Positions 24,001 to 30,000 of a DNA stretch of 64,000 bases are shown here, one piece after another. The stretch covers positions 64,001-128,000 of the forward strand of contig CAWFGO010000005.1 of the NCBI GenBank assembly GCA_963815455.1, given 5' to 3'. The position numbers are program-made. Source of the stretch: an uncultured Verrucomicrobiae bacterium (GTDB lineage: Bacteria > Verrucomicrobiota > Verrucomicrobiia > Chthoniobacterales > UBA10450). Position 1 is the first letter of the stretch; each line of letters opens with the position of its first letter.

Positions 24001-27000
24001 GTGGGACGTGCCGGGAAATTTGCCGAGCTATCCGCCAACCGCACAACCGCGCACGATCGTCGCGCCTTCGAATGTGGAGAGGCAACGGTTCTTCCGCCTG
24101 CAATTATCCGCGCCGTAGTTGTCCCTCGTTGTAGCGGCGGTCTCCGACCGTCCCACTTTGGATTTGGAAAGAGTGCGACAGTCAGAGACTGCCGCTACAG
24201 AGATCGCGCAAGCTTGTCAGGGTTTTACGTGCGACTAAGGTAATCGGTGCAGCAAAGCCGCTGGATCATTGCCCCGCCGGAAGAACTTAACGGCGGATCT
24301 ATTTCTTGGAGTGAGATCTGCGGGTCCGATTGCATTGCGCGCCTGCTGATGCGCAGAGGGTTCGCCAGCGCTGAAGAAGTGCAAACATTCCTCGACCCGC
24401 GGTTGAGTTCGCTCAGCGATCCGTTCTTGCTTCCCAACATGAAGGCAGCAGTCTCGCGAATTCTAGATGCGCTGGATCGACGCGAGCGGATCGTGCTTTT
24501 CGGCGATTACGATGTCGATGGTGTGACCTCGGTGGCGCTGCTGGCGGAAATGTTGCGTGCATATGGAAGCGCGCCGGGTTTGTTTTTGCCGTTGCGGATC
24601 GAGGAAGGTTACGGGCTCGGTCGCGAAAGCATCGAGCGCTGTGTCGAACAACACCGGCCCCACCTTCTGATCGCGGTAGACTGCGGGACGTCATCGACCG
24701 AGGAGATTGTCGATCTTAAGAAACGTGGCGTGGACGTGATCGTTCTCGATCATCACGAGCCAAAATCTGCGTTGCCGGACTGCGTTGCGATTGTGAATCC
24801 CAAAATCGATCCGGAATCGCCCTTTCATTATTTTTGCAGCGTTGGGATCGTCTTCAAACTTTGCCACGCCCTGCTCAAAACGCGCCCGGTCGATTTCGAT
24901 CTAAAGTCGAAACTCGATCTGGTCGCGCTCGGTACCGTGGCCGATATCGTTCCGCTGCGCGGCGAGAACCGGGTCTTCGCCAAGCGTGGTGCGGTCGAGA
25001 TTGGGCGATCGGCCAGGCCTGGTTTGAAAAAGTTGATCGAGGTGAGCGGAGTGCGTCCGCCGATTCTGACCGAAGATATCGGCTTCCGTCTCGGGCCGCG
25101 TTTGAACGCATCGGGACGGTTAAGCAACGCGGAGCGATCGCTGCGACTCCTCCTCACAGAGGACGAAGCTGAAGCGTCGGCGATTGCCGAGGCGCTCGAC
25201 AAAGAAAATCGCGAACGTCAGTCCGTCGAAAAAGAAATCTTCCTCGCCGCGGACGAGCAAATCGCGCGCGAATTCGATCCGGTGCGCGACGCGGCGATCG
25301 TGGTCGCGGCGCGCGGCTGGCATCCGGGCGTGTTGGGAATTGTGGCGTCGCGAATTTGCCGCAAATATCATCGGCCTGCGATTGTCATCGGTTTCGAGGA
25401 GAACGGCACAGGGAAGGGGAGTGGCCGGAGTATTGAAGGGCTAAACCTTGTCGAAGCGTTGAACCGTTGCAGCGATACCTTGCAGAAGTACGGCGGCCAT
25501 GAGATGGCGGCTGGCCTAACCGTTCTCGAAAAGGATGTCGATCTTTTCTCGACGACGTTCCGCCGCGCAGCGCGAGAACTTTTGTCCGACGAACATTTGC
25601 AACCGTGTTTGCGTCTGGATCACGAACTGATGTTCTCCGATCTCAATTTCGATCTTCTTCGATGGCACGAGATGCTCCAGCCCTTCGGCAACGGAAACCC
25701 GGCGCCGCTTTTTTTCTCCCGCGCAGTGGAACCGGTTGGATCGCCGCGCCTGGTCAAAGAGAAGCATCTTATTTTGCGGCTGCGCCAGCGCAATCATCAT
25801 CGGCGCGCGGTCTTTTTTGACGGAGCGAGTACGCCGCTGCCACCGGCGCCATGGGATGTTGCGTTTCGGATTCGCGCGGATGAATACCAGGGGGACACTC
25901 TGCTCGGGATACAGATTCAATCTGTGCGTGAAGCGGAGCGAATAGGATGATCGAGAAAGACGCCGAGATCGCGATTTCGCAATCGTTGGACCAACTAGAA
26001 TGGATTCCGCGGCCGAAGCTTCTCGCTTTGCGCCGGCTTGGCATCGAGAGGGTGGAAGATCTACTCACGCATTATCCGCGACGTCACGAAGATCGACATC
26101 AGTTTCCCCATTTTCCGCGCGAGGAGAGCGACACGCCGATTTGTCTCTGCGGTGAAGTGGTCAAAACATCGGTGCGCCGATTTGGCGGCTGGAAAAAAAT
26201 CTTCGAGGCCACACTGGAGGAATCGGGCTCAAACGCGCTGAGCGAGCCGCTGGTTTGCCGGTGGTTCAATTTGCATTATGTGCAAAAAATGATCGCGACG
26301 GGCCAGCAACTCGTCGTGTTCGGGAAGCCGCGCCTGCGGGGAAAACGGATTTGCATGGAGCACCCTGAGTTCGAAGTGATTGAGAACGACGAGGAGATGT
26401 CGATCCATTTTCGGCGAATTACGCCGATTTATCCTGCCACCGAGGGTCTTTCCCAACGCGTGTTGCGCAGCCTGATCCATCGTTTGTTAGACGAGCTTGC
26501 CGACGAACCGTTGGAAACATTGTTGCCGAAGGAACTGGCCGGCGCCGACCGGCGCGCCGCGCTTGGCGCGATTCATTTTCCGGAGAACTGGGAAGCGCAT
26601 CACGCGGCGCGACAGCATCTCGTGCTCTCGGAATTTTTCGCGATGCAAATGTTGATCGCCTCCCGGCGTTCGGAAGCATCAATTCGGGCCGGCGAATCGC
26701 ATTGCGGCACCGGAGCGTTGCTCGAAAAATTTGTGGGTGCGCTCCCATTCGATTTGACCAGCGCGCAGTCGAAAGTGATCGCTGAAATCCGGCGCGATCT
26801 CGCCTCGAGCCATCCGATGAATCGGTTACTGCAGGGCGACGTCGGTTCCGGAAAAACCGTGGTGGCGATCGCGGCGATGCTCCTGGCAATCGAAGCCGGA
26901 TATCAGGCGGCGTTCATGGCGCCGACGCAAATTCTGGCGGAACAACATTACGCCGTGCTCCGCCGCTGGCTTGAACCGCTGGGCATTCGATTGTCGATCC

Positions 27001-30000
27001 GCACGGCAGCGCGACAGGAAGACAACGCGCCGCTGCCGTTGTTCGCGCAGGCGCAGAATTTAACGCACGGAAGGATTCTGGGGAGCACAGGCTGCCAGCC
27101 TGTTGCGTCCGGCAGCTTGCCGGACTCTTCTGCGCCCGAGGAAAAAATAGGGAAAATCCTGTCCGGCATGGCCGAACCTATTTACCACCGGCGCAGCCTC
27201 CCTCATTTCGAGCGGCCCTGGGCCAAATACGCAATTACCTTCGCAACACGAAATCGTTGGCGACTGTCGCCAAAAGCGCGTGATGTCGTGCTGGAATCCA
27301 TCATCAACTGGAAGGATAAGCGTTACGAACTCTACGCTGCGTGCGTAATGCCGGATCACGTGCATATGCTGATCGAACCGATGGTCGAGCGGCAGGGCGC
27401 GTCTGGTGACTCGGTCTTTTTTTCCATTTCAAAAATTCTGCACACGATCAAATCGTTTACTGCCAAACAAATCAACAGGACAGAAAGCAGAAGCGGATCG
27501 GTTTGGGAGATAGAATCGTTCGACAGAATGATTCGATCGGAGAGTGATTTGCGGGAAAAATTTCTATATATTACGGGTAACCCTTGGGACGTGGGGGTCG
27601 CCAAACAGGGCGAAGATTACCGATGGGTCTGGTACCCTGGGAGCCGCGACGCCATTCAATTCGCGGCAGGCTGCCGCGAACCACAGGCTGGCAGCCTGTG
27701 CTCCCCGGAGGCGAAGCTCGCTCCCGAGGAGCCTCAAATCATCGTGGGAACGCACGCGCTGCTTTACGACAATGTTTCCTTTTCGAATCTTGGATTGGTG
27801 GTCATTGATGAGCAGCACAAGTTTGGCGTTGCCCAACGCGCTCGCTTAACGGATCGCGAACCGGCGCCGGATGTGCTCGTCATGACAGCGACGCCAATTC
27901 CGCGGACGTTGACCATGACGGTTTACGGCGATCTCGATGTTTCAATCATTGATGAGATGCCGCGCAATCGGGGGAAGATAATCACCGCGGCCCGCGACGA
28001 ATCGAAGCTTGGCGAGGTCCTGGTATTTTTGCGCGGGCAGTTGGAAGCCGGGCGTCAAGCGTACGTGATTTATCCGTTGATCGACGAAAGCGACAAGCTC
28101 GATGCCAAGGCGGCGGCGGCGGAATATGAATTGTGGCTGGAACGTTTGCGCCCATATCAATGCGAGCTGCTGCACGGCCGCATCCCTGCTCCGGAAAAAC
28201 AGGAAATCATGGAACGGTTTCGCCAAGGCCAGACCAGCGTTTTGATCAGCACGACCGTGATCGAGGTCGGGGTCGATGTTCCAAATGCTGCGGTGATGCT
28301 GGTTGAAAACGCGGAACGCTTCGGCTTGGCCCAGCTGCATCAACTCCGTGGGCGGATCGGGCGCGGCGAGCATAAGTCGTATTGCATTTTGTTAACGTCG
28401 GACGACTCGAAGGAGACGGCGGCGAAGCTCGCCGTTCTGGAAAAAACAATCAACGGTTTCGACGTGGCCGAAGCCGATTGGGATTTGCGTGGGCCGGGCG
28501 ATCTGTTAGGCACGGCGCAAAGCGGTCTCCCCGGCCTCAAGATTGGTAATTTAAAGTCGGACGCGCAATTGATGCGCCGCGCGCGAGCAGCGGCGATGTC
28601 GATCTTCCGGGCCGATCCGGGTTTGGAGCTGCCGGAGAATCAACATTTTCGCCGTTTGATTGTCGAAACACAGGGACGAACCTTCTCAAACGTCAGTTGA
28701 TGAAAAATCTCGCCAAATTCTTACTATTGGTGCTGCTGGTTAGCGCAGCAATCTCGTTTCTCTATGATTACCGGCTCAAGCATGGGAATCTGAAGCCGCT
28801 CCCAAGCCGAACACCGGAAAAATATACGCTCGCAAACGAGCCTAACATCAAATCGCAGCAGGTCGCCTCTCTGGAAGCGCTGAACAGAGAGCGGCGGGCA
28901 CTGGTAAACAGCGTGATCCCGTCCGTCGTTGCGGTGAAGACCTCGAAGAAAATCGAGATCCGCCGGCAATATGGGCTCGATCCATTTCAATTTTTCTTTC
29001 GCAATCCGAGCCAGTTCCGCAGTCCGCGGGATCAGGCGCTGGTACAAAACTCTCTTGGCTCTGGAGTCATCGTGACAAACGAGGGACACATCATCACCAA
29101 CAACCACGTTGTCGATCAAGTGGACGATATCGAAGTGCAGTTAAGCGATGGACGCACCACCAAAGCGCGGGTTGTCGGCGCGGATGCGCAGCTCGATCTG
29201 GCTGTCCTTAAGATCGACGAACCGGGGGTCAAGCCGCTCAAGCTGGCCGATTCCGATGCGGTACAGGTAGGCGATTTTGTTTTGGCGATCGGAAATCCTT
29301 TTGGGTTCGAAGAAACAGTGACGGACGGAATCATTAGCTCGAAGGGACGCCCGAATCGCAGCGACGCGTTTAGCGATTTGCTGCAAACGGATGCAGCCAT
29401 CAATCCGGGCAACAGCGGGGGCCCGTTGATCAACCTTAGCGGTGAAGTCGTTGGGATTAACACCGCGATCATTTCACGCAGTGGCAGTTCTTCCGGAATT
29501 GGCTTCGCTATTCCGTCCAACACGGTGCGCAACGCACTCGAGAGCCTGCTGAAGCAAGGCCGGATCATACGCGGTTATCTCGGGATTCAGACGCGAGCGT
29601 TGCAGCCGCCAGGTCAACGAGCGCCGGAAACCGAAGGCGTTACGGTAGATGACGTCATCGCAGGATCGCCTGCGGCCGAGGCCCGCTTGCAAAAGGGAGA
29701 CGTGATTCGCAAGTTCGCTGGGCATGATGTGAAAAATTTTCCGGCGCTGCGCAGTCTCGTCGCTCAGGCTGAGCTGAACAAAAAAGTCGAGCTGGAAATT
29801 GTTCGCGATGGGAAACCGATGAAGGTCACGACGGAAATCAGGGAGCAACCGATGGACTTTCAAACCGCGCAGTCGCCGCAAGGAAACCAGCCCCAGCCGC
29901 AAGTGCCGGCCGAACCGGACGCGGGCGATCAGGGCGAACCCGACGCGGGCAACCCGCTCGGAGCAATTCACGTTGAGGCCCTAACGTCTGAGATGATGCG

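Follow-up and report, generated by a model that had tools for sequence, protein, structure and literature searches.

In-frame REP-associated tyrosine transposase cassettes in recG and other core genes of a Verrucomicrobiota family

How does a transposase come to lie in frame within a helicase gene, and what keeps it there? We addressed this question in a 64,000-nucleotide window of an uncultured Verrucomicrobiae bacterium (contig CAWFGO010000005.1), numbered here from its first nucleotide, in which recG and its surroundings show the following features.

24247-25950, + strand: recJ-like DHH exonuclease gene, its stop overlapping the recG start
25947-28700, + strand: recG, one open frame of 917 aa, single copy
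27045-27731, + strand: variable loop with the cassette, in helicase domain 1 between motif Ia and the strand before GTHAL
27076-27126, + strand: left REP, type A, with the conserved TCYGG end and two hairpins, read in frame
27082-27085, + strand: foot of the left type-A REP, GGAG
27183-27635, + strand: core of the REP-associated tyrosine transposase (RAYT, TnpA-REP), 151 aa
27357-27365, + strand: HUH motif, His471-Val-His473
27567-27584, + strand: class 2 catalytic motif Y---NP, with Tyr541
27658-27710, - strand: right REP, type A, inverted, read in frame on the + strand
27701-27704, - strand: foot of the right type-A REP
28700-30232, + strand: DegP/HtrA-like protease gene, its start overlapping the recG stop

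The gene is translationally coupled both ways, to recJ upstream and to the DegP-like protease downstream. Its cassette-bearing loop exceeds the short allele of relatives (48 aa) by 225 aa; the Y1_Tnp match covers RecG residues 427-514 and splits the DEAD model at position 92. As a preliminary description of this DNA had stated, the RAYT is flanked by inverted REPs read in frame: the arms lie at 27077-27122 and 27664-27709, and each forms a double hairpin (z -3.9 and -4.5). Across recG cassettes, the tetranucleotide foot of the flanking hairpins is GGAG or GTAG.

The insert is a RAYT, set in frame between inverted REPs. Against the NCBIfam model REP_Tyr_transpos (NF047646) it scores 77.9 bits, just below the cut-off of 80, with nearly the whole model covered, and against an IS200 model 22.9 bits. 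A PDB sequence search returned only a weak match to 4ER8 (E 0.11), and it was the fold search that decided the identity: the model of the RAYT domain (pLDDT 89.6) has 4ER8 as its top Foldseek match, with a TM score of 0.70. The model of the full-length fusion is of low quality (pLDDT 56) and was given no weight on whether RecG folds around the insert. The motifs that define class 2 TnpA-Y1 proteins in the available text of PMC6006769 are well kept, HUH in 49 and Y---NP in 47 of 50 recG RAYT alleles (a non-random sample of the 68 filled alleles, the first 30 chosen by score).

This arrangement is common to many relatives and several hosts. An uninterrupted recG fusion is present in at least 67 of 200 family genomes, with 13 more partial, and more than half of the family has recG without a RAYT. 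In the present genome, the same domain lies within open ORFs of metH, alaS and carB, as earlier proposed, each the sole copy of its gene. The alaS and carB ORFs first cited do carry the RAYT domain in an open frame, but single-base frameshifts ahead of the insert cut off their first ~90 and ~60 codons, respectively. Intact fused genes in relatives indicate that these frameshifts are probably assembly errors. The genome, which is 90% complete, yielded no MetE, so metH may be required. The term "essential", once applied to all four hosts, overstates the case for recG, which is dispensable in E. coli. Our six-frame search reproduced the count of 15 RAYT-like ORFs, 4 embedded and 11 others. Across genomes, host sites occur in recG, metH (two sites), alaS (two sites), carB, thrS and priA, and the same clade also has stand-alone members, coupled in operons to a stop codon that precedes them. 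The copies are 38-60% identical to each other, and the clade was not detected in 21 of 44 genomes.

The cassette supplies neither a start nor a stop codon, and one fixed frame runs across it and both REPs without a stop. An in-frame ATG precedes the RAYT core in only 2 of the 50 alleles, and no internal start is conserved. Because it has no start of its own, the RAYT would be made as a guest domain of the host protein. Helicase motifs are intact in 49-50 of 50 filled recG alleles. Conservation of HUH and Y---NP persists among the recG alleles even though synonymous sites are saturated, and dN/dS of the RAYT is 0.06-0.09 in two unsaturated pairs. Judged from these sequence comparisons, the RAYT is under purifying selection and conserved as an enzyme.

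The recG alleles also indicate that the cassette is swapped between species and does not descend with the host gene. Cassette type differs within 9 of the 14 host pairs that are closest (host pS < 0.5), and in the closest of all (dS 0.14) the RAYTs differ at a pN of 0.31; only 14 of 50 alleles share their type with the nearest host relative. The RAYT tree groups by REP type and not by genus, with genus monophyly rejected for all three genera tested. Within types B and C, RAYT distance still tracks that of the host (Mantel rho 0.36 and 0.71), and the sequences flanking the cassette follow genus. Between genera, synonymous distances of RAYTs are never low, so no recent long-range transfer was caught. 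At a larger scale, the RecG RAYTs as a single clade are rejected (AU p 2e-5) and at least 14 host switches are required, although subclades mostly stay with one host site. Given these switches and the stand-alone members, the notion of one precise site per element is not supported.

We next consider the REPs elsewhere in the genome. Three of the four REP types have genomic populations, in agreement with the preliminary description: the RecG type (type A) is present as 29 exact 22-mers, or 76 copies and 33 doublets under a looser pattern, the MetH type in 8 copies and the CarB type in 19, while the AlaRS type has no cognate population and is confined to the flanks of the alaS cassette itself. 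None of the 11 stand-alone RAYTs in this genome is flanked by type-A REPs. Between genomes, the median type-A REP count is 37 where recG carries type A (n=15), 2 where it carries another type (n=35) and 0 where it is RAYT-free (n=30). Among 13 independent pairs, ~8-10 differ in this same direction and ~0 in the opposite one (sign test, median p 0.002-0.008). That REP counts track the cassette type in recG argues that the embedded type-A RAYT is active in trans on these REPs. Five genomes hold 14-31 type-A REPs, and in these a type-A RAYT was not found. The corresponding test for type B is confounded: the B pattern scores 34 in type-A genomes against 37 in type-B ones, since it picks up the MetH-type REP as well and B-like RAYTs occur in metH of some type-A genomes.

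We consider these observations probably best explained by a REPtron that relies on translation of its host genes, turns over in loops that tolerate it and leaves scars on loss, a reading that builds on demonstrated anatomy, selection, swapping, REP association and scars. Such a REPtron, composed of a REP, a RAYT and an inverted REP without translation signals of its own, would persist wherever host translation can be borrowed, either in frame in tolerant loops and linkers or stop-coupled in an operon. The RAYT would be made within the host protein, fold as a separate domain and stay catalytic, and its co-occurrence with REPs suggests that it maintains its REPIN family in trans. Cassette types would replace one another at a given loop between close species, the exchange comprising the cassette plus a few codons; a RAYT lineage would occasionally relocate to another host loop, and loss would proceed by in-frame deletion leaving REP scars. 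As to how swaps arise, the chances are about even that they are ordinary recombination among close relatives, keeping an old multi-allele polymorphism, and somewhat lower that RAYT nicks at REPs start them. It is possible, and here we are tentative, that these cassettes form a class of self-propagating REPtrons, translated as guests in core enzymes, which nick at REP ends and displace the resident cassette or occupy an in-frame REPIN or scar; rival RAYT types would then contend for a few translated loops, and each winner would rewrite the REPIN population of its genome.

Compatible with much of this explanation, and different from it in the maintaining force, is the somewhat unlikely reading of a domesticated gene under balancing selection, in which the host gains from the RAYT and its REPINs, the loop does no more than ensure expression, and types move passively between genomes as alleles of a variable locus do. 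The presence of one copy per type, the strong constraint, the residual host signal within types and the genus-specific flanks all fit this reading, and a benefit from RAYTs has been hypothesized in the available text of bioRxiv 2021.07.10.451892 and PMC5581495. It is harder to reconcile with the RAYT-free majority of recG genes, the genomes devoid of the clade, repeated scarred loss and hosts that share no function. A host-specific benefit, such as tethering by RecG or PriA to fork DNA, was rejected as a general reason, because the clade also resides in synthetases and metabolic enzymes.

With homing elements the cassette shares a patchy allelic insert at a fixed site and horizontal spread, and true homing without splicing would have the RAYT attack an empty allele, be copied in at one precise site per lineage and exit cleanly. 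A host tree of 110 rows needs 29 changes to account for presence and absence in recG; 16 genera have a RAYT-free allele of fixed length (47-48 aa), often with filled alleles as sisters; one allele (L032) resembles a crossover between short and filled alleles; and RAYT subclades are mostly loyal to one site. We nonetheless regard homing as improbable. Any signal of co-conversion is limited to ~8 codons upstream and 6 downstream, with none by cassette type, and the short alleles lack a REP, whereas known RAYTs cut only REP-bearing single strands according to the available text of PMC8266576. Exits are not seamless, contrary to the initial proposal: 38 of 65 RAYT-free alleles keep a filled-type loop of variable length, 9 of them with recognizable REP remnants. 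The cassette always uses the same loop of recG, but spacers beyond the REPs are variable, and RAYT lineages change hosts. A reading in which the 48-aa allele is the original empty site was dropped, since loops of outgroups span 45-68 aa and one of them (L165) has a filled-type motif; either kind of RAYT-free allele may be ancestral. Thus, of the mobile, homing-like guest first envisaged, the guest domain, the REP link and the lack of descent with the host are supported, whereas homing in the strict sense, site precision and clean exit are not.

Removal of the insert at the RNA or protein level, or separate production or release of the RAYT, is very unlikely, even though strong hairpins mark both cassette ends and in one genome (G004) a split metH encloses the RAYT as a coupled ORF of its own. 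An Rfam scan of 25900-28800 found no intron family and no ribozyme core, no intein (Hint splicing) model is among the families listed, junction residues vary between recG alleles, and the frame is strictly conserved with no conserved internal start. The same scan gave a match to Ysr141 at 26770-27023 (39.5 bits against 196); these positions code for RecG itself and not for the insert, and the match was disregarded. Descent of an inert passenger from one old insertion, with many losses and constraint only to fold and stay in frame, is scarcely credible: embedding would shelter the domain from nonsense and frameshift decay, but catalytic residues are kept across saturated distances, types swap between sister species and REP numbers track cassette type. 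An assembly artefact, to which stray single-base indels in this assembly might point, is refuted by the same fusion in 67 other genomes and in many independent protein records.

Among known systems, the closest is the REPtron of E. coli (PDB 4ER8; class 2 of Quentin et al., PMC6006769, in its available text), with which the cassette shares the fold, HUH, Y---NP, inverted REPs, a cognate REPIN population and one copy per type. It differs in lying in frame inside host genes with translated REPs and no start or stop of its own, and in a foot that is mostly GGAG instead of GT[AG]G. Published RAYTs are extragenic, non-jumping and vertically inherited as far as the available text of bioRxiv 2021.07.10.451892 and PMC5581495 goes, whereas the embedded cassettes are neither free-standing nor vertical, their tree being incongruent with that of the host. 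IS200/IS605 elements and IStrons share the Y1 HUH fold, and IStrons are reported to render insertions in genes harmless (PMC4227781); here there is no TnpB, no group I intron and no set of near-identical copies, and the motif is Y---NP and not Y---Q. Like inteins with homing endonucleases, the cassette is an in-frame guest of conserved proteins with patchy alleles and a cycle of gain, decay and loss. Unlike them, it has no splicing domain, variable junctions, an HUH single-strand nuclease fold and a scarred exit; inteins sit in conserved motifs, whereas the cassette occupies variable loops. The ShiLan domain of phage methylases is likewise a mobile in-frame insert predicted to stay in its host protein, but in the available text of PMC11855218 it encodes an HNH nuclease that is out of frame and has a start of its own, in a phage gene, without REPs or trans-mobilized repeats.

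We found no published description of embedded RAYTs in a literature search that covered few subscription papers; the figure on long proteins in PMC6006769 and the lists of REPtrons in PMC3733652 may be relevant to how new they are. Quentin et al. excluded unusually long proteins as fusions or errors (PMC6006769, available text), and surveys that discard long fused proteins overlook embedded RAYTs. The available literature leaves open why RAYTs persist; here is a clade that would be translated in core proteins and turns over with its REPINs, and its natural contrasts (same host with different cassettes; filled, scarred and short alleles) allow selfish spread to be compared with host benefit. 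The cassettes also suggest a route by which domains of 150-250 aa may enter and leave conserved enzymes without splicing, and they affect the annotation of recG, metH, alaS and carB in these abundant Verrucomicrobiota. Translated palindromic repeats in tolerant loops are shared with the in-frame REP and RPE insertions described in the available text of PMC3733652 (Rickettsia RPEs, Opitutus terrae) and PMC6006769 (REPs inside subclass 2.4 tnpA), although those are non-autonomous and 20-30 aa long, and here a whole transposase is inserted. Translated palindromic repeats of this kind were also seen in metH and dnaE2.

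The recG gene at 25947-28700 is a single open frame of 917 aa in which a Y1_Tnp match splits the DEAD domain. Compared with RecG from E. coli and Thermotoga, the added residues fall after motif Ia and ahead of the strand preceding GTHAL, in a loop that is also variable (45-68 aa) in 14 outgroup RecG proteins. The insert contains both HUH and Y---NP, is matched over almost the complete model by NCBIfam REP_Tyr_transpos, and has a predicted structure (pLDDT 89.6) whose nearest neighbor is TnpA-REP 4ER8, at a TM of 0.70. It is bounded by inverted REPs, each a double hairpin. Its motif, fold and flanks, as well as its REP population, identify the insert as a class 2 TnpA-REP (PMC6006769). 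We observed related inserts in MetH, AlaRS and CarB of this genome (G000), each host gene being single copy; together with the open recG frame, these bear out the preliminary description, which placed REP-associated tyrosine transposases (RAYTs) in frame inside all four proteins. The alaS and carB ORFs cited there lack their N-termini through single-base frameshifts 5' of the RAYT insert, which are probably assembly errors. A separate, more distant set of 11 stand-alone RAYT-like ORFs is also present, at least 8 with their own GTAG- or GGAG-footed hairpins nearby. The loci concerned are:

Window 24247-30232: recJ, recG and a DegP-like gene, joined via overlapping stop and start codons
Window 24100-24240: translation after the ORF ending at 24118 resembles another REP-type repeat
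C2:126049 region and C1:1469351 region (loci L002, L003): frameshifts of alaS and carB, 60-90 codons from the start

The arrangement is real and widespread. A stop-free match spanning the entire insert occurs in at least 67 of 200 family genomes, a count that takes in G155 and G135, with partial matches in 13 more. The RecG insert matches 1672 longer proteins, and among the 120 matches listed there are 107 RecG, 10 AlaRS and 3 MetH; source labels among the homologues indicate Chthoniobacterales / Candidatus Udaeobacter, which is the likely affiliation of this genome as well. With the RAYT as query, 38 matches came from 23 of 44 genomes, 30 of them within ORFs of at least 600 aa, and the 20 RAYT loci fetched comprise 14 inside metH (two sites), alaS, carB or thrS and 6 stand-alone copies. 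MetH site 1 holds an intact RAYT in 4 of 60 genomes. The clade extends to alaS and priA in other families of the class, and one MetH and several AlaRS proteins contain two RAYTs:

L168, L173: priA with a RAYT in frame, from two other families of the class
P0001, P0004, P0014: MetH/AlaRS proteins that each contain a pair of RAYT domains; in P0001 the first of these looks mosaic, its front being of recG type and its end of metH type

We consider it likely that the element is an active REPtron (a RAYT between inverted REPs), its activity being inferred, which relies on the host for translation and undergoes turnover at tolerant loops. We extracted 115 recG alleles, 50 filled and 65 RAYT-free, leaving out 3 frameshifted and 2 truncated loci; the filled alleles were drawn from 68 as the top 30 by score plus 20 chosen. 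HUH is present in 49 of the 50 and Y---NP in 47, and RAYT dN/dS is 0.06-0.09 in two pairs apparently inherited vertically. Counted with both flanking copies, type-A REPs have a median of 37 (range 4-107) in the 15 genomes whose recG insert is of type A, as in G000, 2 in the 35 with other recG types and 0 in the 30 RAYT-free genomes, an association that also holds over 13 independent pairs. None of the 11 stand-alone RAYTs of G000 has type-A flanks, leaving the recG insert as sole candidate for its 33 REPINs (REP doublets). Two observations weigh against activity. The type-B REP test is confounded, and in five genomes that have 14-31 type-A REPs a type-A RAYT was not found; for three of the five, a sister species carries the type-A cassette in its recG, as would fit decay after replacement.

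Helicase motifs are complete in 49-50 of the 50 filled alleles. We found no intron or intein signature in the recG insert and no conserved alternative start before the RAYT core among these alleles, two of which have an in-frame ATG there. Stand-alone clade members begin outside the left REP. In family genomes metH is often two ORFs, split at the linker used by the RAYT (L175, L180); in G004 the two halves flank a RAYT that forms its own coupled ORF, and in G092 the RAYT lies at the end of the first half. The constant feature of these forms is thus borrowed translation rather than covalent embedding. In-frame type-A REPINs, 3 of the 33 doublets of G000, lie in two genes:

C3:173127-173269 (L001): one REPIN at metH site 2
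C2 (L193:671-3835): two REPINs in dnaE2 (error-prone polymerase)

The occupation of metH site 2 by a whole RAYT in other genomes suggests that REPINs may be landing places or remnants. A further type-A REPIN (L194:618-2162; C1:1159243-1159373) sits directly 5' of a dihydroorotase gene, inside an open frame entering that gene.

All recG inserts share one loop, with spacers outside the REPs that differ in length and sequence, and the RAYT tree resolves six types, each with its own REP. On a host tree of 110 rows (loop excluded; five rows with short flanks removed), we counted 29 changes of filled state, 21 of the short allele and 25 of RAYT type. The closest host pair has a dS of 0.14, yet its RAYTs differ at pN 0.31 with synonymous sites saturated; of the 14 pairs with host pS <0.5, type differs in 9 and RAYT pS is <0.5 in only 2. 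Type matches that of the nearest filled relative in 14 of 50 cases. Monophyly on the RAYT tree was rejected for three genera defined by taxonomy and picked after the tree was seen (AU p 0.001 for g10, 6e-7 for g8 and 6e-5 for g17). Within types B and C, RAYT distance tracks the host, and no cross-genus RAYT pair has a low synonymous distance, which counts against recent long-range transfer. RAYT subclades mostly stay at one host site; the RecG RAYTs do not form a single clade (AU p 2e-5), and there are at least 14 host changes, contrary to the proposal of one precise site per element.

The preliminary description also proposed homing into empty sites with seamless exit, a form that we regard as improbable. 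Phage methylases are known to contain a non-splicing homing insert (PMC11855218). The short RAYT-free allele is a fixed 47-48 aa in 27 genomes of 16 genera (G007 included), and attack on it is unlikely because known RAYTs cleave only REP-bearing strands (PMC8266576). The recG flanks group by genus, not by cassette type, and in swapped pairs flank divergence does not increase toward the insertion site; exchange is therefore narrow or among close relatives. The other 38 RAYT-free alleles keep the filled-type loop motif (44-110 aa), nine with REP remnants judged by eye, indicating exit by in-frame deletion with scars.

The element differs from RAYTs as published, which are described as extragenic, non-jumping and vertically inherited (bioRxiv 2021.07.10.451892 and PMC5581495). 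In-frame REPs, and REPs that overlap RAYT gene ends, have precedents (PMC3733652). Our literature search found no description of embedded RAYTs; one survey excluded such long proteins (PMC6006769), and protein database names already reflect the RAYT fusion. Two stand-alone RAYTs of different types (L134:1209-1961 and L136:3269-3925) were found at one and the same place in a pilus operon of the Amuc_1100/1101 type, which is an intergenic swap site, and the start of one overlaps the upstream stop.
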